Source: Cenarchaeum sp.
GTDB taxonomy: Archaea > Thermoproteota > Nitrososphaeria > Nitrososphaerales > Nitrosopumilaceae
NCBI GenBank assembly: GCA_963693095.2
Contig: OY843768.1
Coordinates: 192,001 to 256,000 of the forward strand
Length of the DNA: 64,000 nucleotides
Direction of reading: 5' to 3'
Every line of letters begins with the position of its first letter. The first letter of the stretch is position 1. The notes beneath the pieces are model-generated. The model saw nothing but the letters and a program-made list of their open reading frames with translations. It was not told the DNA's origin and did not search any database. Shown here one piece after another: positions 24,371 to 35,625 of the stretch. A program made the position numbers and the translations under genes.

Positions 24371-24843
24371 GGACTTGCGCGCGCGGGGCACTCGTGGTTT
24401 GTGCACATTCTGGTCCACTTTGCGGTTCGCGTATAGCGGTATATCGCCATGGGCCATGCGCACTCGGGGCACGCCTGCTTTAGGGCGCGCAGGCGCGCCC
24501 TCTGCGGCAGCGGCGAGGACGCGTCGCACCCGTTGAGATAGTTTGAGCACCCGATGAACCTCTTGCGCGTCCTGCGCGAGCGAACCAGCATGAGCATGCC
24601 CGTCCGGCACGAGGGGCACCTGACTAGCCCGCTGCGCGGCGAACGGGTTCCCAGGATCGTATAGACGCGCGCGCGGGCCGACCATGCGAGGTAGCCGCCG
24701 GTGTCAAGATACTCGTCGAGCTCAACCCTGAGCAGGCGCACGTCGCGCGCGCTGCTAGAGGCCGTGTGGCTTCCGGCGGGGCGCATTGCCACCACGCGCG
24801 CCGGTCCGGATGCCCGTCTTGCCATTGCCGCCCTCTCGGTCAC
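24367..24843 (-). CDS. Topoisomerase-type C4 zinc-finger protein
   Basis: CPSC..RFIGCSNY..C and CPEC..CTNHEC motifs. Confidence 0.8.
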   Translation of the reverse strand: MTERAAMARRASGPARVVAMRPAGSHTASSSARDVRLLRVELDEYLDTGGYLAWSARARVYTILGTRSPRSGLVRCPSCRTGMLMLVRSRRTRKRFIGCSNYLNGCDASSPLPQRARLRALKQACPECAWPMAIYRYTRTAKWTRMCTNHECPARASP

Positions 24844-24877
24844 GCGTTTTTATAGGGGCCCCAAGTCATCTTTCTTT

Positions 24878-26032
24878 GTGGAAAAGGTGTGTGTGCTGGG
24901 AGCCGGCAGCACGCGATATGGCAAGCTCGACGAAAGCCTCGTGGAGATGATAGTTGACTCGTCAGCCGGCGCCATGGGCGATGCGGGAATCGAGCCGCGC
25001 GAGATTGGCGCTGCCTACATATCCAACGTCTTTGGCATAGCCGACAAGCAGGTTCACCTCGGGCCAGTTATCATGAGCCGCCTTGGAATACCCGAGCGCC
25101 CGTCGCTGTCCATAGAGTCAGCATGCGGGAGCGGCTCGGTCTCGTTTCGCGAGGCATACGCCAATGTGGCAGCCGGTTTCTATGACGCGGTTCTCGTGAC
25201 TGGCGCAGAAAAGGTCACGCACACGGGCACGGCGTGGACCACGACCTACTTTGCCTACTGTTCGGACTTTTTCTACGAGGGCAGCGCCGGCGCGTCGTTT
25301 CCTGGACTCTTTGCGTCTATGGCCCGCGCGTACATGTCCGAATATGGGGCGACTGAGGAGGACTTTGCGCGCGTCGCAGTAAAGAACCACGACAATGGGA
25401 TACTCAACCCAAAGGCCCACCTGCGCAAAAAGATAAGCGTCGATGACGTTCTGGGCTCCGCAGTGGTCGCAAGCCCGCTAAAGCTGTATGACTGCTGCCC
25501 GTTCTCTGACGGCGCAAGCTCTGTCATACTCTGCAGCGAAAAGTTTGCAAGGGACCATGGCGGCAAGTACGTCGAGGTCGCCGGCTCTGGCCGCGGGGGC
25601 TCGCCGGCTGCGCTGCAGGACAGGGGGCACATGACTACGATCGACAGCACGCGCATAGCGTCTGAGGCGGCCTACAAGATGGCCGGCGTGAGGCCCTCTG
25701 ACATTGACTTTGCCGAGGTCCATGACTGCTTTACTATAGCCGAGGTCGTCAACAGCGAGGATCTCGGATTCTTTGAAAAGGGCAAGGGCGTAGAGGCCGC
25801 ACGCGACGGCAAGACGGCACGCGACGGCGAGATACCGCTAAACCCGTCTGGCGGCCTAAAGTCAAAGGGGCACCCCATTGGCGCCACTGGCGTGGGCCAG
25901 GTCGTCGAGGCATACGAGCAGCTAACCGGCGCTGCCGGCGAGCGCACGGTTTCTGGCGCCGAGGTTGGCCTGACACACAACTTTGGCGCAACGGGCGCAA
26001 GCTGCGCAGTCCACATATTCCGGAGCGTATGA
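24878..26032 (+). CDS. Thiolase (acetyl-CoA acetyltransferase, archaeal type)
   Basis: ESACGSG, EVHDCFT, NPSGGLKSKGHPIGATG. Confidence 0.92.
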   Translation: MEKVCVLGAGSTRYGKLDESLVEMIVDSSAGAMGDAGIEPREIGAAYISNVFGIADKQVHLGPVIMSRLGIPERPSLSIESACGSGSVSFREAYANVAAGFYDAVLVTGAEKVTHTGTAWTTTYFAYCSDFFYEGSAGASFPGLFASMARAYMSEYGATEEDFARVAVKNHDNGILNPKAHLRKKISVDDVLGSAVVASPLKLYDCCPFSDGASSVILCSEKFARDHGGKYVEVAGSGRGGSPAALQDRGHMTTIDSTRIASEAAYKMAGVRPSDIDFAEVHDCFTIAEVVNSEDLGFFEKGKGVEAARDGKTARDGEIPLNPSGGLKSKGHPIGATGVGQVVEAYEQLTGAAGERTVSGAEVGLTHNFGATGASCAVHIFRSV

Positions 26033-26400
26033 TCATGTCGACTAGGGGCGAGTTTTCAAGCAGCGCAAAATCCGGCAAGATTCTTGCCTCAAAGTGCCCA
26101 AAGTGCGGCACACTCCACCTTGCCATGTCGCTGTTCTGCTCAAAGTGCGGCGCGCGCGGGCTGGTGCCCGAGGAGGTTGCAGGGCGCGGAACTGTCGTGA
26201 CATACACCATAATCACCGTCGCCCCTGACGGATTTGAGGGCCACACGCCATACGCGTGGGTCGTCATGGCCATCGACGGCACGCCACTGCGCGTCTCGGG
26301 GTTTATGGCCGCCATCGCCACGCCGGCAGACCTTCCGGTGGGGACACGCGTGAAGATCGCCGGCCATGACGAGCGCGGCATACTCATAGAGCGCAGCTAG
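26029..26400 (+). CDS. DUF35 Zn-ribbon/OB-fold thiolase partner
   Basis: CPKCG..CSKCG, GTVVTYT, PY; overlaps the thiolase stop. Confidence 0.9.
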   Translation: MIMSTRGEFSSSAKSGKILASKCPKCGTLHLAMSLFCSKCGARGLVPEEVAGRGTVVTYTIITVAPDGFEGHTPYAWVVMAIDGTPLRVSGFMAAIATPADLPVGTRVKIAGHDERGILIERS

Positions 26401-26471
26401 AAACAATTTACGCGCATGCGCAACAAATTGCGATCCCACTGTTAATTACTCGCCACGTGCCACGCCTGCCC

Positions 26472-26639
26472 ATGTCAGTGGACATTGTCTGCGGCAAGTG
26501 CGGCAACCTCGTGCACAGGATGAGCATGCTAAAGCCCATCAAGGAGTCTGTGGCCGGAAAGAAAGAAACGTGCACCAAGTGCGGCAGCGTGCTCTCCACT
26601 AGCGAGTTCTCCGTTGACGCCCGCGAAATTGGCGAGTGA
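26472..26639 (+). CDS. Small Zn-ribbon protein
   Basis: CGKCG...CTKCG; TTAATTA box upstream. Confidence 0.7.
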   Translation: MSVDIVCGKCGNLVHRMSMLKPIKESVAGKKETCTKCGSVLSTSEFSVDAREIGE

Positions 26640-26941
26640 GCGCACGCTCGCTCCTCGGCCCGCCCATTCCGCGCGCTCGCAATCCTGCCACCGATGGGCC
26701 TTGATCGGCCCTGTCGCGGGAACCGGCTAGCCTGCCCCCGCCATGGACATTGTGGTGCCCAGGGGCTCCATGGTGCCGGCGTGTGCGGCAGGGGGTCATG
26801 GCGCGGCCATGGCGCCGAGCGTCGCCTGCCGTGCGCGAGCCGGGTCATGCCGTGCGCGCATGCGTTGCGGGAGGGCGGCGGCCCCATATGCCTGCCCCGC
26901 ATGGGCGCCATCGGCAAGACCTGCAGTCCGGTGCGGCGGCG

Positions 26942-27023
26942 CTGCGATCTAGATCGCACGCGACTCGATGATCCTGCGATCTAGATCGCACGCGACTCGA
27001 TGATCCTGCGATCTAGATCGCAG
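26942..27023. repeat. Tandem repeat, 32-bp unit x2.6, containing three copies of the 16-bp perfect palindrome TGCGATCTAGATCGCA
   Basis: Units ctgcgatctagatcgcacgcgactcgatgatc start at 26942, 26974 and 27006. Confidence 0.95.
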
Positions 27024-27239
27024 AATGTCGCCTCGCGCCGGATCCATGGCCGCACTGTGCGGCCCTCACGCCATAAACATTCCACGTTAGTGCTAAATAT
27101 GGCGCAAACCCTGAAAAATGTGGCGTGGAGCGCCCAAATTGTGCCAACGCTGATCGCCCAATGCCAAAAACTGCGATCACAAAAGCGCTCCGGGCACACT
27201 GCAAAAGTTTTATCTACAAGCCCTGTGCGCACGGTGCGC

Positions 27240-29324
27240 ATGGCCATGGAAGAGCAGAGCGAGCCGCAACGTCACGGCCTAGAGCGCTCGACATCACGGC
27301 GCGTTCGCATGATCTTCTCGGTCATGGCTAGCCCAAACCGCATAGACATCCTGCGAATACTCAACTCAAAGGGGCCACTCACCTACTCGGAGCTAAAGTC
27401 ACTGGCTGGATTCAAGTCAAAAAAGGAGAGCGGCAAGTTCGCCTACCACCTGCGCAAGCTCCTCAAGCAGGCCCTCGTGACGCTAAACAAGTCCGAAAAG
27501 CGCTACACCATAACCAACCTTGGCAAGCTCGTCCTGAGCCTTGCCCGCCAGATCGAGGAGCGCTCGATCATAGAGAGCGGCAAGATGTACGTGCGCACGT
27601 CGCACGAGTCCATAGAGGAGTTCAAGCCATACAGGATAACGCAGTCGCTGACCCGCGAGGGCGGCCTCCCGCCGGAGCTGGCACAAAAGATCACCGAGGA
27701 GGTCGAGAACCGCATCTACAAGTACCAGACGACATACCTGACTGGCTCGCTCATACGCGAGATGGTCAACTCTGTCCTCCTCGAGCACGGCAACGAAGAG
27801 TACCGCAACAAGCTCGCGCGACTTGGCCTGCCCGTCTATGACATAAACGAGATGCTCTCCAACGTGGTCAACGAGGACAATGGGGTCGAGGGACTGCTGT
27901 TCCGCACTGGCCAGGAGGTCTTCGCCGAGCACCTCCTCACGAACATGCTCTCAAAGGACGTTGCCGACTCGCACCTGTCTGGCGACCTGCACATAACAAA
28001 CCCCGGCGTCTGGTCAATGCTGCCTGACACGATATTTGTCAACATAAAGGACCTCCTCGAGGGGGGCATCGACCTTGGCGGCAAGCTTCCCGATGCGGCA
28101 CGCCCCGGCGCTCCAAAGTCCGCCGAGGACCTCGGAGCGCTCCTCTCAGTCGCGATATCGCTCCTCTCGCGCGAGGCCTCGCAAGAGCTTGTGATCGACG
28201 GCCTTGTGCCCATGATGACGAGGCACTCAAAGGAGGGTGTCGACCTTGAGAGGAGAATAGCTGACGCGCTAGTAACGTCATCTGTTGCGCCAAAGTACAA
28301 CTCGCATCCGACACTCGTGACGATTCGCGTTCCGCTGGGGCATGACACAAAGACCGTCTCGACGATCCTTGCCGCATACCTACACTATGCGCGCCTCACG
28401 CCGACGCCGCGCGTTGGGATACTGATCGACAACTCGCGTGGCAAGGTCTCTGACGTCTCAGATGCGGTCTCTGAGATTGTTGCGCTAGGCGGCCACGTTG
28501 CCTTTTCAAAGGGCCTGTCCTCGTGGGGCGGCATTGCAGTCGCGCCGCACGAGACCAACGGGTCGCTCTCCGTTCACCTCGCTTCTGTCTCGCTAAACCT
28601 CCCGCGCCTAGCCCTCGAGTCAAACAAGGACGAGGTGTACTTTCGTGCTAGGCTTGCGCTGCTGATGACGCCGGTTCTCGAGTCCATGGCCCACCGCAAA
28701 AAGGCCATCTCTGACCTGACTAGGCGCGGCCTCAACCCGATTCTGGCAAGAAACACGCAATATATGCAAAAAATCTCCTTTTCGCTCGACGTGAACATCA
28801 TAGGCCTGCGCGAGGCAGTCGCTGACATACTCCAGTGCGGCAACAGGACCGAGGCCGTCATGCAAAAGGTTCTCGAGACGACCCTTGATATCGCCTCCAA
28901 AAAGGGCAAGGAGACCGGAGACGACGTTCGCGTGAGCATGGTCGACAGCGACGCGAAGGGCCGCTTTGCGTCACTCGACGGCACAAAGTACGGCAAGAAC
29001 TCGCTGCTGAACATGCTCAACGCCGAGTCATACTCTGCAGGCGTCTCAGTCGAGGCGGCTGACCTGCCGGCCCTAAAGCCCAAGAGCGCCCCTGTCCTCG
29101 AGGCCGCCCGCATGTCCGCCGCGCTGGGGGGCAGCCTTCTCGTCTCGGTCAACCTGCCGGAGGGCTCTGAGCCATCTGCGATCAAGTCCGCCGTCGAGTC
29201 CGCCGCCGGCCTCTATGGCTCGTTCCGCCCGTCGATGAGGGTGCGCACGTGCGGCGAGTGCGGCCACAAGGGCGTCGCGGCGGGATCAAAGTGCCCCAAG
29301 TGCAAGTCTCCCTGCGTCGTCTAG
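27240..29324 (+). CDS. ArsR-type HTH + ATP-cone + degenerate class III RNR (NrdD-like) fusion protein
   Basis: N-terminal wHTH (RIDILRIL..TYSELK..FAYHLRKL); ATP-cone (YVRTS..EEF..RI..SL..E); HLSGDLHI; SLNLPRLA; C-terminal CxxC..CPKC with no glycyl-radical loop. Confidence 0.85.
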   Translation: MAMEEQSEPQRHGLERSTSRRVRMIFSVMASPNRIDILRILNSKGPLTYSELKSLAGFKSKKESGKFAYHLRKLLKQALVTLNKSEKRYTITNLGKLVLSLARQIEERSIIESGKMYVRTSHESIEEFKPYRITQSLTREGGLPPELAQKITEEVENRIYKYQTTYLTGSLIREMVNSVLLEHGNEEYRNKLARLGLPVYDINEMLSNVVNEDNGVEGLLFRTGQEVFAEHLLTNMLSKDVADSHLSGDLHITNPGVWSMLPDTIFVNIKDLLEGGIDLGGKLPDAARPGAPKSAEDLGALLSVAISLLSREASQELVIDGLVPMMTRHSKEGVDLERRIADALVTSSVAPKYNSHPTLVTIRVPLGHDTKTVSTILAAYLHYARLTPTPRVGILIDNSRGKVSDVSDAVSEIVALGGHVAFSKGLSSWGGIAVAPHETNGSLSVHLASVSLNLPRLALESNKDEVYFRARLALLMTPVLESMAHRKKAISDLTRRGLNPILARNTQYMQKISFSLDVNIIGLREAVADILQCGNRTEAVMQKVLETTLDIASKKGKETGDDVRVSMVDSDAKGRFASLDGTKYGKNSLLNMLNAESYSAGVSVEAADLPALKPKSAPVLEAARMSAALGGSLLVSVNLPEGSEPSAIKSAVESAAGLYGSFRPSMRVRTCGECGHKGVAAGSKCPKCKSPCVV

Positions 29325-29528
29325 GGCTCATTGCCGAAACTGCGGGCGAACTGGTGCGCCTGGCGCACATAAAATTGCGCTATTCGGCGCCATTTTGCTC
29401 CTTATCGCACGAATTCGCCACTTTTATCCGAATACCGCAGGTCAATTTTCTCTCTAGTCCCGGTTGATCCCTGATCACAAGTTAATCTTATAACCACAGG
29501 GGTTTGACCCCCTGCCGGTCAGCTCATT

Positions 29529-32171
29529 TTGGACACAACCCAGACCCAAACCCCGATCGAGGCGATCAGAAAACGCAATGGGGAGACGGCCACATTTGAT
29601 CGCACAAAGATCACCAGCGCAATAGAAAAGGCGTTCACCGCAGTCGGCCGCAGCGATCCAGAGGAGGCCGAGCGCCTGACCGAGAAGGTCATCAAAAAGC
29701 TCTACGTGCAGGGCTTTTCGGTCTCAAAGCCGAGCGTGGAGGACATCCAGGACATGGTCGAGTCGACGCTCATCGAGAACGAGCACAGCACGGTGGCCAA
29801 GGCGTTCATACTGTACAGGCACGAGCGCCGCAAGGTTCGCGACGAAAAGATGCGCGTCCTCAACACGGCATCCCTGGATCCCGTGGCCTCGGACTTTGAT
29901 GTCAACTCGCTGAGGGTCCTTGCGTCACGATACCTGCTGCGCAACAACCGCAGCGAGATAACCGAGTCGCCCTCGCAGATGTTCAGGCGCGTCGCCGTGC
30001 TCGTGAGCATAGCCGATGTCCTGCATGACCCGAGAATCTTTGAGCGCGACGGCAGGCACACGCAGAGCGTGGACGAGGCAGAGTCGTACATATCAAAGCT
30101 TGACAGCTTTGACCAAAAATTCCGCATAGGCGAGGATTATCTCAACAAGTGGCACTTTAGGGCGCTCATCAAGCACTATATCGCGCTTGCGCGCACGGGA
30201 TCGATGAAGATAGGCTTCAAGGACCTCCTGACGATGCTCGCGAGCAAAAAGTTCGACTCGTGCGCATCAAAGATTGAAGAGTACTATGACCTCATGGTGT
30301 CACAGGACTTTTTGCCAAACTCGCCGACGATGATGAACGCCGGATGCAGGCTCGGCCAGCTCTCGGCGTGCTTTGTGCTTGACATGCCTGACAACATGGA
30401 GGGGATCATGAAGTCGACGGCTGATGCGGCACTCATATTCCAGTCCGGCGGCGGTGTCGGCATCAACTATTCGCGCCTTCGACAGGAGGGCGACATTGTC
30501 GCATCGACGTCCGGTGTGGCATCAGGCCCAGTATCTTTCATGAACATCATAAACACGGTGACCGAGGTGGTAAAGCAGGGCGGAAAGCGCAGGGGCGCCA
30601 ACATGGGCATAATGGAGTCGTGGCATCCGGACGTTGAAAAGTTCGTGACAAACAAGACAAAGCCCGGCGTCCTTGAGAACTTTAACGTGAGCGTCGGGAT
30701 TTGGGCCGACTTTTGGAAGGCGCTCGTGGGCGGCGGCGACTCAAAGTACGTCCTGCGCAGTCCCCGTGACAGGTCTCCTGTGGGGGAGATCAGCGCGCAG
30801 CACCTCATAGACTCGATCGCCCAGTCGGCATGGAAGAGCGCCGAGCCGGGCCTCATATTCTTTGATCAGATAAACAAGTACAACGTCTTTGCCAAGGCCC
30901 GCGGCGAGCCGCTAAAGGCGACAAACCCGTGCGGTGAGCAGAGCCTATACCCGTACGAGTCATGCAACCTCGGCTCGATAAACCTCGCCAACCTCGTCAA
31001 GCGCCGTGCTGATGGCGAGTATGACTTTGACTGGCAGCGCTACGAGGAGGCCATCCGCAAGACGACAAGATTCCTCGACCACATCATCGACGTCAACCTC
31101 TATCCGATCACCGAGATCGACAAGGCCTCAAAGGACTCGCGCCGCATCGGCCTCGGCGTCATGGGCGTCGCAGACCTCCTCTACAAGCTGCGCATACCAT
31201 ACAACTCAAAGGAGGGCTATGACATGCAGTCAAAGCTCGCCGAGGCACTGACATACTATTCGATGGAGGAGAGTGTCGCAATAGCAAAGTCGCTTGGCGC
31301 CTTCCCGCTGTGCTCAAAGACCGAATATGCCGAGGGCAAGATACCTGTCGCCGCATACTATGAAAAGCCAAAGGAGCTCCACACGTACGACTGGGATGCG
31401 CTCATTGAAAAGATAAAGGTTCATGGCATACGCAACGTGCTCACGACGACTGTCGCGCCAACAGGCACGCTCTCGATGATAGCGCAGTGCTCCAACGGCA
31501 TGGAGCCAATGTTTGCGCTCGTCTTTGAAAAGCGCGTCACAGTCGGCAAGTTCCTCTACGCAAACAAGGTTCTCGAGGGAGTCTTGCGCGAGAACGGCAT
31601 GTACTCTGATGAGACGCTCGCGGCCGTGGCGTCCAACTATGGCTCGATGCGCGGCCTTGACTCGGTTCCCGAGTGGATGCAGAACGTGTTTGTGACGGCA
31701 ATGGACATACACTGGTCTGACCACCTCCTCGCGCAGGCCGTTTGGCAGCAGTGGATAGGCAACGCGATTGCAAAGACGATAAACATGCCATACGACGTGA
31801 CCGTGGATGACGTAAAGGCCGCGTACCTCCTGGCGCACGAGCTCGGCCTAAAGGGCATCACGATATACCGTGACGGCTCGCGCCACACGCAGGTTCTACA
31901 CATGACTGACGAGGGCGCCGAGAAAAAGTTCGACGTGCGCCCAAGCGAGTTTGTCACCGAGTTCGTCTCTGCGAACATAAAGAACGCGTACGTGCGCGAG
32001 CAGGTCGACAGGGCACTCGAGCTGCGCGCGCCCTCTGAGCACGCCCTGGAGACTGCCCCGACTGAGGTTCCCGAGGAGTCCCTCTGCCCGACGTGCAAGA
32101 ACACGCTCGTCTTTGCCGAGGGCTGCAACATCTGCATAGAGTGCGGCTTTAGCGGCTGCACGTCTGGCTAG
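29529..32171 (+). CDS. nrdJ: Adenosylcobalamin-dependent (class II) ribonucleotide reductase with ATP-cone
   Basis: IRKRNG ATP-cone, PNSPT, LSACF, TNPCGEQ, CNLGSINL, APTGT, KTIN, C-terminal Zn finger. Confidence 0.95.
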   Translation: MDTTQTQTPIEAIRKRNGETATFDRTKITSAIEKAFTAVGRSDPEEAERLTEKVIKKLYVQGFSVSKPSVEDIQDMVESTLIENEHSTVAKAFILYRHERRKVRDEKMRVLNTASLDPVASDFDVNSLRVLASRYLLRNNRSEITESPSQMFRRVAVLVSIADVLHDPRIFERDGRHTQSVDEAESYISKLDSFDQKFRIGEDYLNKWHFRALIKHYIALARTGSMKIGFKDLLTMLASKKFDSCASKIEEYYDLMVSQDFLPNSPTMMNAGCRLGQLSACFVLDMPDNMEGIMKSTADAALIFQSGGGVGINYSRLRQEGDIVASTSGVASGPVSFMNIINTVTEVVKQGGKRRGANMGIMESWHPDVEKFVTNKTKPGVLENFNVSVGIWADFWKALVGGGDSKYVLRSPRDRSPVGEISAQHLIDSIAQSAWKSAEPGLIFFDQINKYNVFAKARGEPLKATNPCGEQSLYPYESCNLGSINLANLVKRRADGEYDFDWQRYEEAIRKTTRFLDHIIDVNLYPITEIDKASKDSRRIGLGVMGVADLLYKLRIPYNSKEGYDMQSKLAEALTYYSMEESVAIAKSLGAFPLCSKTEYAEGKIPVAAYYEKPKELHTYDWDALIEKIKVHGIRNVLTTTVAPTGTLSMIAQCSNGMEPMFALVFEKRVTVGKFLYANKVLEGVLRENGMYSDETLAAVASNYGSMRGLDSVPEWMQNVFVTAMDIHWSDHLLAQAVWQQWIGNAIAKTINMPYDVTVDDVKAAYLLAHELGLKGITIYRDGSRHTQVLHMTDEGAEKKFDVRPSEFVTEFVSANIKNAYVREQVDRALELRAPSEHALETAPTEVPEESLCPTCKNTLVFAEGCNICIECGFSGCTSG

Positions 32172-34516: not shown

Positions 34517-35625
34517 TATACTCACGAGCTAAAGTTCGTGTGACCTTCCACGACCTTCCTGTTCAGGTATGCGTAGATGTTCAGGTTGAACCGCTTGGTC
34601 CTGAGGTACTCGCCGACCGCGATCCTCAGCTCGTCCAGGGTTCGTGGTTGCCCCGGGACCCTGACGTCCCTCTTGAGTATGCGCCACGTCCCCTCGATGG
34701 CGCTTAGCTGCGGGGATCCCACCGGCAGCTCGATGAGCTTGATCTCGCCGTTGGCGCGCAGCAGGTTCTTGACCGCCCCCGCGCGGTGCTGGGGAGCCCT
34801 GTCGACGATGACGGCGATCTTGCCGAACTTCCCGTGCAGCTCCGCAAGGTACTGCGCGAACGTGTCCGCGTTGAACTTGTCGCGCGTCCGGAACGCCTGC
34901 CGCCCGTCCTCGGCGATCGCCCCGTACACGACGATCCGCTCGTGGCTCCCGGTGTACGGCTCGTAGACGGGCACCGTGCGCGGCGTCCAGTGCGTCGCCA
35001 TGCCCCCGGCGTCGTTCACGATGATCGACTCGTCCTGCACCAGCATCGTGTATCCCGCGCGCGCCAGGCGTGGCGCCGCCCCCGCAAGGCGCCGCTGCCA
35101 GCTGCGGACGGCGGACGCGCTCGCCCTGTTGACGTGGGCCTTTCGCGGCCTCTTGCGCGAGAGGCCGAACTCGCGCATGAGCCTCCTCACGCTGGCTATG
35201 TGGAACAGTGTCCCCGCCGCCCCGGCGATCCTGTCGCGGACCGCGGCCGGGGTCGTGGGGGATCCCGACGCGTCGGCGAGGATCCCGTCGAGCGCCGTTC
35301 GCGGCACGGCCAGCGGCCTCCCGGAGCGCGGGAGGTCGCGGAGGGCGGGAAGCCCGCCCTCCCGGTACCGCGCAACCCACTTGCCGACCCACCCCGGGCA
35401 CCGCATCAGCGTGTCCGCCGTGTCCTCGTGCGTCATGCCCATGTTGACCACGCAGTGCACGGCGAGCATCCTGTCCCTCACGTGCCCGCTCTTCTCGCTG
35501 TGGTGCGCGTCCCTCAGCTCCTCCCGCTTCCGGTCGTCCATGCCCTGGCGCGGGAGGGGGCGATCAATATAGCTGCGGGGTCGGGGAAACTTGATCATCT
35601 ATACGAACTTTAGCTCGTGAGTATA
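34517..35625 (-). mobile_element. Complete IS630-family insertion sequence
   Basis: 23-bp perfect inverted repeats TATACTCACGAGCTAAAGTTCGT (34517-34539 / 35603-35625) including the TA target. Confidence 0.93.
34522..35598 (-). CDS. IS630-family transposase (single ORF, DDE intact)
   Basis: HTH (W..RYREGG..L.D.PRSGRP), QDES, VDRAPQH, SPQLSAIE. Confidence 0.93.
   Translation of the reverse strand: MIKFPRPRSYIDRPLPRQGMDDRKREELRDAHHSEKSGHVRDRMLAVHCVVNMGMTHEDTADTLMRCPGWVGKWVARYREGGLPALRDLPRSGRPLAVPRTALDGILADASGSPTTPAAVRDRIAGAAGTLFHIASVRRLMREFGLSRKRPRKAHVNRASASAVRSWQRRLAGAAPRLARAGYTMLVQDESIIVNDAGGMATHWTPRTVPVYEPYTGSHERIVVYGAIAEDGRQAFRTRDKFNADTFAQYLAELHGKFGKIAVIVDRAPQHRAGAVKNLLRANGEIKLIELPVGSPQLSAIEGTWRILKRDVRVPGQPRTLDELRIAVGEYLRTKRFNLNIYAYLNRKVVEGHTNFSS

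Follow-up and report, generated by a model that had tools for sequence, protein, structure and literature searches.

To our knowledge, the transcriptional control of ribonucleotide reductase (RNR) in archaea is largely unknown. The closest described system is NrdR, the bacterial RNR repressor, in which a zinc ribbon is combined with an ATP-cone and whose box is a pair of 16-bp palindromes. According to the available text of two reports, NrdR is found in most bacteria and only some archaea and forms oligomers controlled by ATP and dATP (PMC9110341), and its boxes function only at whole helical turns (PMC12051234). Here, we describe a gene in a 64,000-nucleotide stretch of the Cenarchaeum sp. 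assembly GCA_963693095.2 (contig OY843768.1, positions 192,001 to 256,000 of the forward strand), which is referred to as the window and whose numbering is used throughout. The gene lies directly upstream of nrdJ, and its product joins a winged helix-turn-helix (wHTH) domain and an ATP-cone to a barrel resembling that of the class III RNR, NrdD, in which the catalytic residues are missing. On balance, this protein probably regulates the transcription of nrdJ and of its own gene in response to nucleotides, as a functional analogue of NrdR. It is most likely an RNR regulator that senses nucleotides and was built from the recycled enzyme; it would resemble NrdR in the way it works and is not a member of the NrdR family. 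The genes and domains concerned are as follows.

27240..29324, plus strand: regulator-candidate gene, 694 amino acids, consisting of wHTH, ATP-cone, dead NrdD-like barrel and zinc ribbon
27312..27536, plus strand: ArsR-like wHTH, residues 25-99, with recognition helix GFKSKKESGKFAYHLRKL (Pfam DUF7347, HTH_20)
27585..27803, plus strand: ATP-cone, residues 116-188, with V-R-T-S where the canonical motif is V-x-K-R (Pfam; hhalign to the nrdJ ATP-cone)
27840..29219, plus strand: NrdD-like alpha/beta barrel, residues ~201-660, without the NxN flap, the top-face cysteine or the finger-loop cysteine pair
29250..29303, plus strand: C-terminal Cys4 zinc ribbon (C671, C674, C685, C688)
29529..32171, plus strand: nrdJ, adenosylcobalamin-dependent class II RNR with a canonical N-terminal ATP-cone (TIGR02504, 712 bits against a cut-off of 400)

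As in NrdR, an ATP-cone is joined to a DNA-binding module, the gene is located beside an RNR gene, and candidate sites with whole-turn spacing are present in both its own promoter and the RNR promoter. Unlike NrdR, the protein carries an ArsR-like wHTH instead of the N-terminal zinc ribbon, approximately 490 additional residues comprising the dead class III RNR barrel and a C-terminal zinc ribbon, and an ATP-cone without the canonical Lys-Arg; its candidate boxes are short GATC-centred repeats arranged in arrays, and the homology is limited to the ATP-cone, as the NrdR model TIGR00244 matched neither this protein nor any other in the genome. With NrdD (T4, 1H78/1H79; T. maritima, 4COI; P. copri, 8P23; S. 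thermophilus, 9D3X), it shares homology over the whole barrel and zinc ribbon along with the motifs ADAHLSGxIHI and NLPR, and the V-R-T-S variant of its ATP-cone is found in a true archaeal NrdD (T_L050), but it lacks the thiyl-radical cysteine, the second cysteine, the NxN flap, the glycyl-radical domain and an activase, and it has an added wHTH. The N-terminal domain is of the HTH_20/HTH_5 type known from ArsR/SmtB-type regulators (HlyU, ArsR, NolR), in which the wHTH belongs to a metal sensor of approximately 100 residues, whereas here it is fused to a 600-residue putative sensor body. PutA and BirA are enzyme-derived transcription factors, described as trigger enzymes or pseudo-enzymes, and the present protein would resemble them in that a metabolic enzyme fold senses the ligand for a DNA-binding protein which regulates the enzyme's own pathway. 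It would differ from both in that the enzyme part is fully inactivated, derives from a radical enzyme and has as its target another class within that enzyme family.

Our literature search, whose coverage excluded most subscription journals and supplements such that a prior mention is possible, retrieved no description of a protein with a wHTH, an ATP-cone and an NrdD body, and the accessible parts of two RNR surveys (PMC3019208, PMC2795772) contain no mention of this family. If the proposed role is correct, the locus would offer a defined regulator, operator and target through which deoxynucleoside triphosphate (dNTP) homeostasis could be tested in a group of global abundance. It would also be a clear example of a radical enzyme reused as a ligand-sensing transcription factor, and it would correct genome annotation and metagenome-based metabolic inference.

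Domain architecture and the loss of class III RNR chemistry

Pfam matched DUF7347, a domain of uncharacterised function, to residues 25-99 with 41.6 bits against a cut-off of 27.6 and HTH_20 to the N-terminal domain with 33.5 bits against 27, with HTH_5 also matched; a profile search gave weak matches of the same domain to HlyU, ArsR and NolR structures (expect value (E) ~1e-3). In the AlphaFold2 model of the 694-residue protein (predicted local distance difference test 88.5; predicted template modelling score 0.80), the wHTH comprised helices at residues 13-76 followed by a beta wing at 80-91. The ATP-cone scored 34.9 bits against a Pfam cut-off of 25.8 and was matched in 51 of 52 relatives at E <= 0.001; a single-sequence search with this stretch alone matched no ATP-cone. 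For the barrel, the Pfam NRDD family was matched with 74 bits against 26.2, covering only profile positions 277-529 of 562, and the NCBIfam NrdD model TIGR02487 reached 64 bits against an equivalog cut-off of 326. A Foldseek search with the AlphaFold2 model placed class III RNRs in all of the top 35 PDB matches (9d3x, 4.6e-20; template modelling scores 0.5-0.65), and a profile of the 52 relatives matched solved NrdDs in the PDB at E 8e-42 to 5e-31, the corresponding single-sequence phmmer matches of the whole protein to PDB sequences being marginal (E 0.025-0.25).

These results agree with the initial annotation of the window, made from its letters and translated reading frames, which had recognised a wHTH, an ATP-cone and an NrdD-like body ending right after the zinc ribbon and had reported the absence of an R-x-x-G-Y glycyl-radical loop, of a catalytic cysteine motif and of a nearby nrdG. 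The protein ends in ...CPKCKSPCVV, six residues past the fourth zinc-ribbon cysteine, C688, and therefore the RxxGY loop and the glycyl-radical domain are absent. The absence of nrdG proved to hold for the entire genome (2.0 Mb, 99.55% complete), in which no NrdG was found above the cut-off with either TIGR02491 (best 29.7 against 126 bits) or TIGR02495 (best 50.8 against 131). The same genome contains no true NrdD, its sole NRDD match being the gene at 27240-29324; nrdJ is the sole RNR detected with NrdD and ATP-cone models, and only two ATP-cones were found, one in each of these two genes. Among 61 genomes of the same family, the pseudo-NrdD was present in 60, and the NrdD equivalog cut-off was reached in none (best 87 bits).

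To locate the catalytic positions, 72 family members were aligned with three true archaeal NrdDs of the same phylum (Pfam NRDD 482-534 bits), and no member was found to keep both the catalytic cysteine and the radical glycine. The finger-loop cysteine pair of the true NrdDs aligned to G431-I432 of the window protein, and each of the two columns held a cysteine in a single member; the top-face cysteine was kept in none of the 72 and is T264 in the window protein. The radical glycine column held a glycine in 11 members and a gap in 23, the latter being short forms; the 11 glycine-bearers were without finger-loop cysteine, and the two cysteine-bearers were without the glycine. The NxN flap, which according to the available text of PMC11226230 closes over the substrate in P. 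copri NrdD and which corresponds to the ENAN columns of the three true archaeal NrdDs, was a gap in 69-72 of the 72 members, depending on the column. The zinc-ribbon cysteines were retained in 69-71 members, and 37 residues were common to the family and the true archaeal NrdDs, 17 of them in the ATP-cone and 20 outside it, including the zinc ribbon. Hence, of seven NrdD-defining features tested, the barrel fold with its homology and the Cys4 zinc ribbon were found in this protein, and five were not, namely, the finger-loop cysteine, the RxxGY domain, the NxN flap, an NrdG in the genome and a sufficient TIGR02487 score. Judged by its aligned residues, the gene product is a pseudo-enzyme and a paralogue of the archaeal ATP-cone-bearing class III RNR, and it is almost certainly not an RNR.

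The public names of the relatives are divided among 'anaerobic ribonucleoside-triphosphate reductase', 'helix-turn-helix domain-containing protein' and 'ArsR family transcriptional regulator', which confirms the mis-annotation that the initial annotation had anticipated; on the closest relatives, which routinely carry it, the anaerobic-RNR label would wrongly imply anaerobic capacity. This label, together with the NrdD fold and the glycine that 11 of 72 relatives carry in the radical column, could be taken to indicate that the protein is still an enzyme, either a class III-like reductase or another barrel enzyme with different chemistry or an unrecognised activase. Such an activity is highly improbable, as the glycine and the finger-loop cysteine never occur together, the top-face cysteine is lost in all members, the flap is nearly always a gap, the short forms have no glycyl-radical domain, the genome has no NrdG above the cut-off, and conservation within the protein is lowest in the active-site region. 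The named relatives of the hosts are, moreover, ammonia-oxidising archaea, which are aerobes. Oxygen destroys the glycyl radical, as stated in the accessible part of PMC2795772.

Conservation and gene order

The closest named records of the protein come from Cenarchaeum sp. assemblies (97% and 89% identity), and the rest of the best 80 named records are mostly Nitrosopumilus, Nitrosarchaeum, Nitrosotenuis and related organisms. The full-length short form, the type encoded in the window, was present in 87 of 91 genomes and in all 48 genera of the order, to which the ammonia-oxidising archaea belong. Conservation was quantified in 30 Nitrosopumilaceae with loci ranging from AT-rich to 60% G+C, the identities being calculated over the 28 sequences from other genera. 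The wHTH was 96% identical to that of the window protein, with 88 of 92 columns invariant, followed by the ATP-cone with 88% (68/88 columns) and the barrel with 42-66% (151/460 columns). The ratio of nonsynonymous to synonymous substitution rates (dN/dS) relative to the sister genome G036 followed the same order (wHTH 0.019, ATP-cone 0.022, barrel/body 0.059; 0.058 overall), and 14 of the 20 invariant columns of a phylum-wide alignment fell within residues 1-200. Stronger conservation of the wHTH and ATP-cone than of the barrel is, at the level of these alignments, the pattern of a ligand-controlled DNA-binding protein and the opposite of that of an enzyme, and the near-invariance of the wHTH points to sequence-specific DNA binding by this domain. 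A second, broken wHTH copy was observed in another member of Nitrosopumilaceae (G012:C1:1091136-1091381), approximately 6.5 kb from the intact gene, with 68% identity to residues 5-86 of P0134 and two internal stops.

The strong purifying selection on the dead barrel is also compatible with a role that depends chiefly on contacts with other proteins: the protein could serve NrdJ (or, in anaerobes, true NrdD) as an allosteric partner without catalysis of its own or as a sequestering subunit, and the wHTH would be secondary. The 20 of 37 residues shared with true NrdDs outside the ATP-cone, zinc ribbon included, and the adjacency to RNR genes fit such a role as well. We nevertheless regard it as improbable, as no other part of the protein is as conserved as the wHTH and NrdJ belongs to a different RNR class. 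A role as a transcription regulator of the nrd locus is, in our assessment, probable, and the constrained barrel would then have some function of its own, for example in dimerisation, in signal transmission or as a further site for a ligand.

The gene order ties the protein closely to nrdJ. In the window, where the initial annotation had noted that nrdJ follows directly, the distance from the end of the regulator gene is 204 bp. The same arrangement, with nrdJ directly downstream on the same strand, was found in 28 of 30 Nitrosopumilaceae loci (the exceptions being one contig end and one rearranged locus), in all 69 evaluable named loci (11 incomplete loci were left out) and, for the other families of the order, in 19 of 20 loci. 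The spacer measured 197-243 bp in 25 of the 28 Nitrosopumilaceae loci; in G257, an insertion or inversion has put nrdJ 4.9 kb away from the regulator gene. The link to nrdJ holds across the order. The family as a whole is wider than Nitrososphaerota, and elsewhere it lies beside pyrBI at least as often as beside RNR genes.

Outside the order, a long form of approximately 740-780 amino acids with a vestigial, glycine-less radical tail was found in other families of the phylum, in which 225 of 301 genomes were matched; one long-form cluster is named Candidatus Bathyarchaeota, and a shorter one is named Candidatus Terraquivivens. We inspected the two nearest genes on each side at 20 long-form loci from 18 families. 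The neighbours included nrdJ in 2 of the 20 loci and a true nrdD in 3, two of the latter with glutaredoxin, along with pyrB and/or pyrI in 9 and a gene of the amino-acid-kinase fold in 3. The theme of the neighbourhood across the family is nucleotide metabolism, which is wider than RNR. These counts could be explained by a general regulator of nucleotide metabolism, covering pyrimidine synthesis and RNR, for which the nrdJ link in ammonia oxidisers would be lineage-specific wiring. We consider this explanation rather unlikely: the pyrBI neighbours are mostly tail-to-tail with the long form, such that they have no promoter in common and co-regulation is not demonstrated, the nrdJ link is nearly invariant in the order of the window, and the stringent GATC arrays described below mark the nrd locus alone.

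In genomes of anaerobe type (loci L043 and L057, both of family f33, and L050), a dead long form lies directly upstream of a true nrdD, so that the pseudo-enzyme and enzyme paralogues are tandem neighbours. A glutaredoxin gene precedes the pair in L043 and L057.

Candidate operator DNA

Candidate regulatory elements were identified in front of both genes, and phased GATC arrays fell in both of the promoter regions that had been singled out beforehand, 26940-27240 and 29325-29528. The elements are listed in the order of their positions.

26942..27025, no strand assigned: candidate distal operator array, a tandem 32-bp repeat in which the palindrome GCGATCTAGATCGC occurs three times, 220-300 bp before the regulator gene
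27152..27178, no strand assigned: pair of GATC boxes near the promoter, one at 27152-27155 (-53 from the TATA-like element) and one at 27175-27178 (-30)
27203..27215, plus strand: promoter element AAAAGTTTTATCT resembling a transcription factor B recognition element (BRE) and TATA box, ~29 nt before the ATG at 27240 (alignment of 30 upstream regions)
29325..29528, plus strand: intergenic region between the regulator gene and nrdJ, 204 bp, including the nrdJ promoter
29466-29469 and 29473-29476, within this intergenic region: nrdJ-promoter GATC boxes, directly upstream of the TATA-like AATCTTATAA (29484-29493)

The open reading frame (ORF) at 27000-29324 has its real start at the ATG at 27240, the equivalent of which is the first residue in all 120 relatives among the matches listed. 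A start further upstream, at 27000, was dropped on the basis of these starts and of the conserved promoter element in front of 27240, whose family consensus in the 30 aligned upstream regions is GTCAyAAGTCTTAtTTAc. The short distance of this BRE/TATA-like element from the ATG implies a leaderless or near-leaderless transcript.

The three copies of GCGATCTAGATCGC are located at 26944-26957, 26976-26989 and 27008-27021, three helical turns apart. In the genome, the exact 14-mer occurs at these three sites only, with one additional 1-mismatch copy elsewhere, and the closest relative, G036, has two copies. Relative to the TATA-like element of the regulator gene, GATC boxes are typically found at -31, -21 and -11, the box at -30/-31 being the position most often retained across Nitrosopumilaceae; relative to the nrdJ start, they are found at approximately -187, -166, -148 and -65 in AT-rich relatives. 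The relocated nrdJ of G257 still has GATC at -152, -236 and -246. In 64 AT-rich Nitrosopumilaceae loci, the GATC density was distributed as follows.

200 bp upstream of the regulator gene: 19.3 GATC per kb
Regulator-nrdJ intergenic region: 13.9 GATC per kb
114 other intergenic segments of the same 64 loci: 5.2 GATC per kb
Coding DNA: 3.4-5.3 GATC per kb

Adjacent GATC boxes were spaced at 10-11, 20-22 or 31-32 bp in 43 of 74 cases compared with 22% expected, an excess for which no P-value is given because the loci are related. In the genomes of five relatives, the pattern GATCN{6,7}GATCN{6,7}GATC occurred at 7 sites, six directly upstream of the regulator gene and one inside an unrelated ORF, and the pattern GATCN{16,17}GATCN{14,16}GATC occurred at 6 sites, all at the regulator-nrdJ locus; in five long-form genomes, neither pattern was found. 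A GATC triple of the 21/19 type was present in 29 of 69 spacers. Upstream regions of 20 long-form genes showed no GATC enrichment, and, outside Nitrosopumilaceae, 7-mers common to upstream and RNR-proximal regions were uninformative.

Whether these arrays are the operator of the wHTH protein is, on this evidence, evenly balanced. Several observations weigh against that assignment or against the regulator role as a whole. The GATC arrays are confined to Nitrosopumilaceae: among 20 loci from other families of the order, 13 had at most one upstream GATC, and several had none in either region. Despite the absence of such arrays, a recognition helix with 85-95% identity was found in 15 of the 17 representatives of other short-form clusters, which are Nitrososphaerota/Thaumarchaeota wherever the name was checked. 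Of 68 named upstream regions, only 5 contained the strict triple with 10-11-bp spacing. When 300-bp segments of the window's own GC-rich genome were ranked by GATC content, the upstream region came no higher than joint third, and the other GATC clusters adjoin unrelated genes. With respect to nucleotide sensing, the ATP-cone lies only 9 bits over its Pfam cut-off, and T120-S121 replace the phosphate-binding Lys-Arg of canonical ATP-cones, including that of nrdJ. The barrel is too strongly constrained to be a passive scaffold, and the long forms adjoin pyrBI more often than RNR genes (9 against 5 of 20 loci). Finally, all boxes lie upstream of the TATA-like elements, for which reason activation would be as possible as repression.

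Taken together, the invariance of the helix and the limited distribution of the arrays imply that either the boxes are recognised through less conserved parts of the protein or another factor reads them. The latter would leave the protein a regulator with an operator of a different motif, and candidate GATC readers would be a small zinc-ribbon protein encoded directly upstream of the regulator gene or a factor dependent on GATC methylation or replication timing. The gene for the small protein (53-55 amino acids) is directly 5' of the regulator gene in 78 of 80 Nitrosopumilaceae loci; in the loci covered, neither it nor the arrays were seen outside that family. We consider a separate reader unlikely, although less so than a general nucleotide-metabolism regulator, as the stringent arrays occur at one locus only, fitting a locally encoded single-locus regulator for which the wHTH protein is the obvious DNA-binding candidate, and the small zinc-ribbon protein matches no family above the cut-off. 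A 6-mer presence test in 19 other-family loci returned only A/T-rich promoter-like words and no common alternative motif.

Returning to the wHTH protein as a nucleotide-responsive regulator of both promoters, we infer DNA binding, nucleotide binding and dimerisation and propose the following mechanism. An NrdD paralogue would have acquired an N-terminal ArsR-like wHTH and lost every element of radical chemistry. Its ATP-cone would report the ATP/dATP state, to which the dead barrel, probably still dimeric as in NrdD, may contribute, and the nucleotide state would alter the presentation or oligomerisation of the wHTH domains. In Nitrosopumilaceae, the protein would bind the GATC-box arrays, with their whole-turn spacing, just upstream of both core promoters. 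The analogy with NrdR suggests repression at high dATP. A more far-reaching proposal, which we offer tentatively and hold to be doubtful as a whole, is that of an ancient family in which a glycyl-radical RNR was turned whole into a transcription factor and which spans ammonia-oxidising Nitrososphaerota, Bathyarchaeota and Aigarchaeota-like lineages. Its ATP-cone would read ATP/dATP and its dead barrel would read dNTPs at the former specificity or substrate sites, so that the protein would integrate the size of the dNTP pool with its balance; cooperative assembly on one face of the DNA at phased boxes would switch class II or III RNR and, in some lineages, pyrimidine-synthesis genes. Such a family would be the missing archaeal counterpart of NrdR, an independent invention derived from its own target enzyme.

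The most GATC-rich 300 bp of the genome lie outside the window, at G000:C1:1588326-1588625 (locus L058), where six tandem 17-bp repeats 'tgcGATCtagggttggt' are followed by GATCGATCGATC, upstream of ORFs of 165 and 679 amino acids without a Pfam match; TGCGATCTAG is common to this repeat and the palindrome upstream of the regulator gene. Two further GATC-rich intergenic regions, G000:C1:1688484-1688783 and 1674857-1675156 (L059 and L060), are paralogous and lie beside DUF3800 genes, and one of them holds the sole 1-mismatch copy of the 14-bp palindrome. A regulon role for the other GATC-rich regions was not accepted, as their neighbours are DUF3800, hemerythrin-like and unknown genes.

Neighbouring genes and minor observations

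Between the regulator stop codon and the nrdJ promoter, a near-perfect 15-bp palindrome, GTGCGCCTGGCGCAC, was observed at 29354-29368, 30 bp past the stop codon. Its symmetry is weaker in the sister genome, and it may form a hairpin of the terminator type or serve as a further binding site. An Rfam scan of 26000-30000 returned nothing near any gathering score. Downstream of nrdJ, a DDE_3-family transposase with helix-turn-helix domains is encoded on the minus strand at 34522-35598, 2.3 kb away, and the ORFs in between have no Pfam match.

On the 5' side, the small gene at 26472-26639 on the plus strand encodes a 55-residue Cys4 zinc-ribbon protein (MSVDIVCGKCG...CTKCG...), for which no Pfam family was above the cut-off, and lies between a ChsH2/DUF35-like gene and the regulator gene. 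It was not found in 20 other-family loci, each represented by only ~600 bp of upstream sequence. A 183-residue ORF on the minus strand at 26408-26959 was rejected as an antisense shadow of this small plus-strand gene. Further upstream, 24701-26400 on the plus strand holds a thiolase gene and the ChsH2/DUF35-like gene, the latter coding for an oligonucleotide/oligosaccharide-binding fold and a zinc ribbon. The same pair was observed upstream of a long-form homologue in a distant family (locus L049), and its presence at both loci suggests an old gene order in which the pair precedes the regulator homologue.

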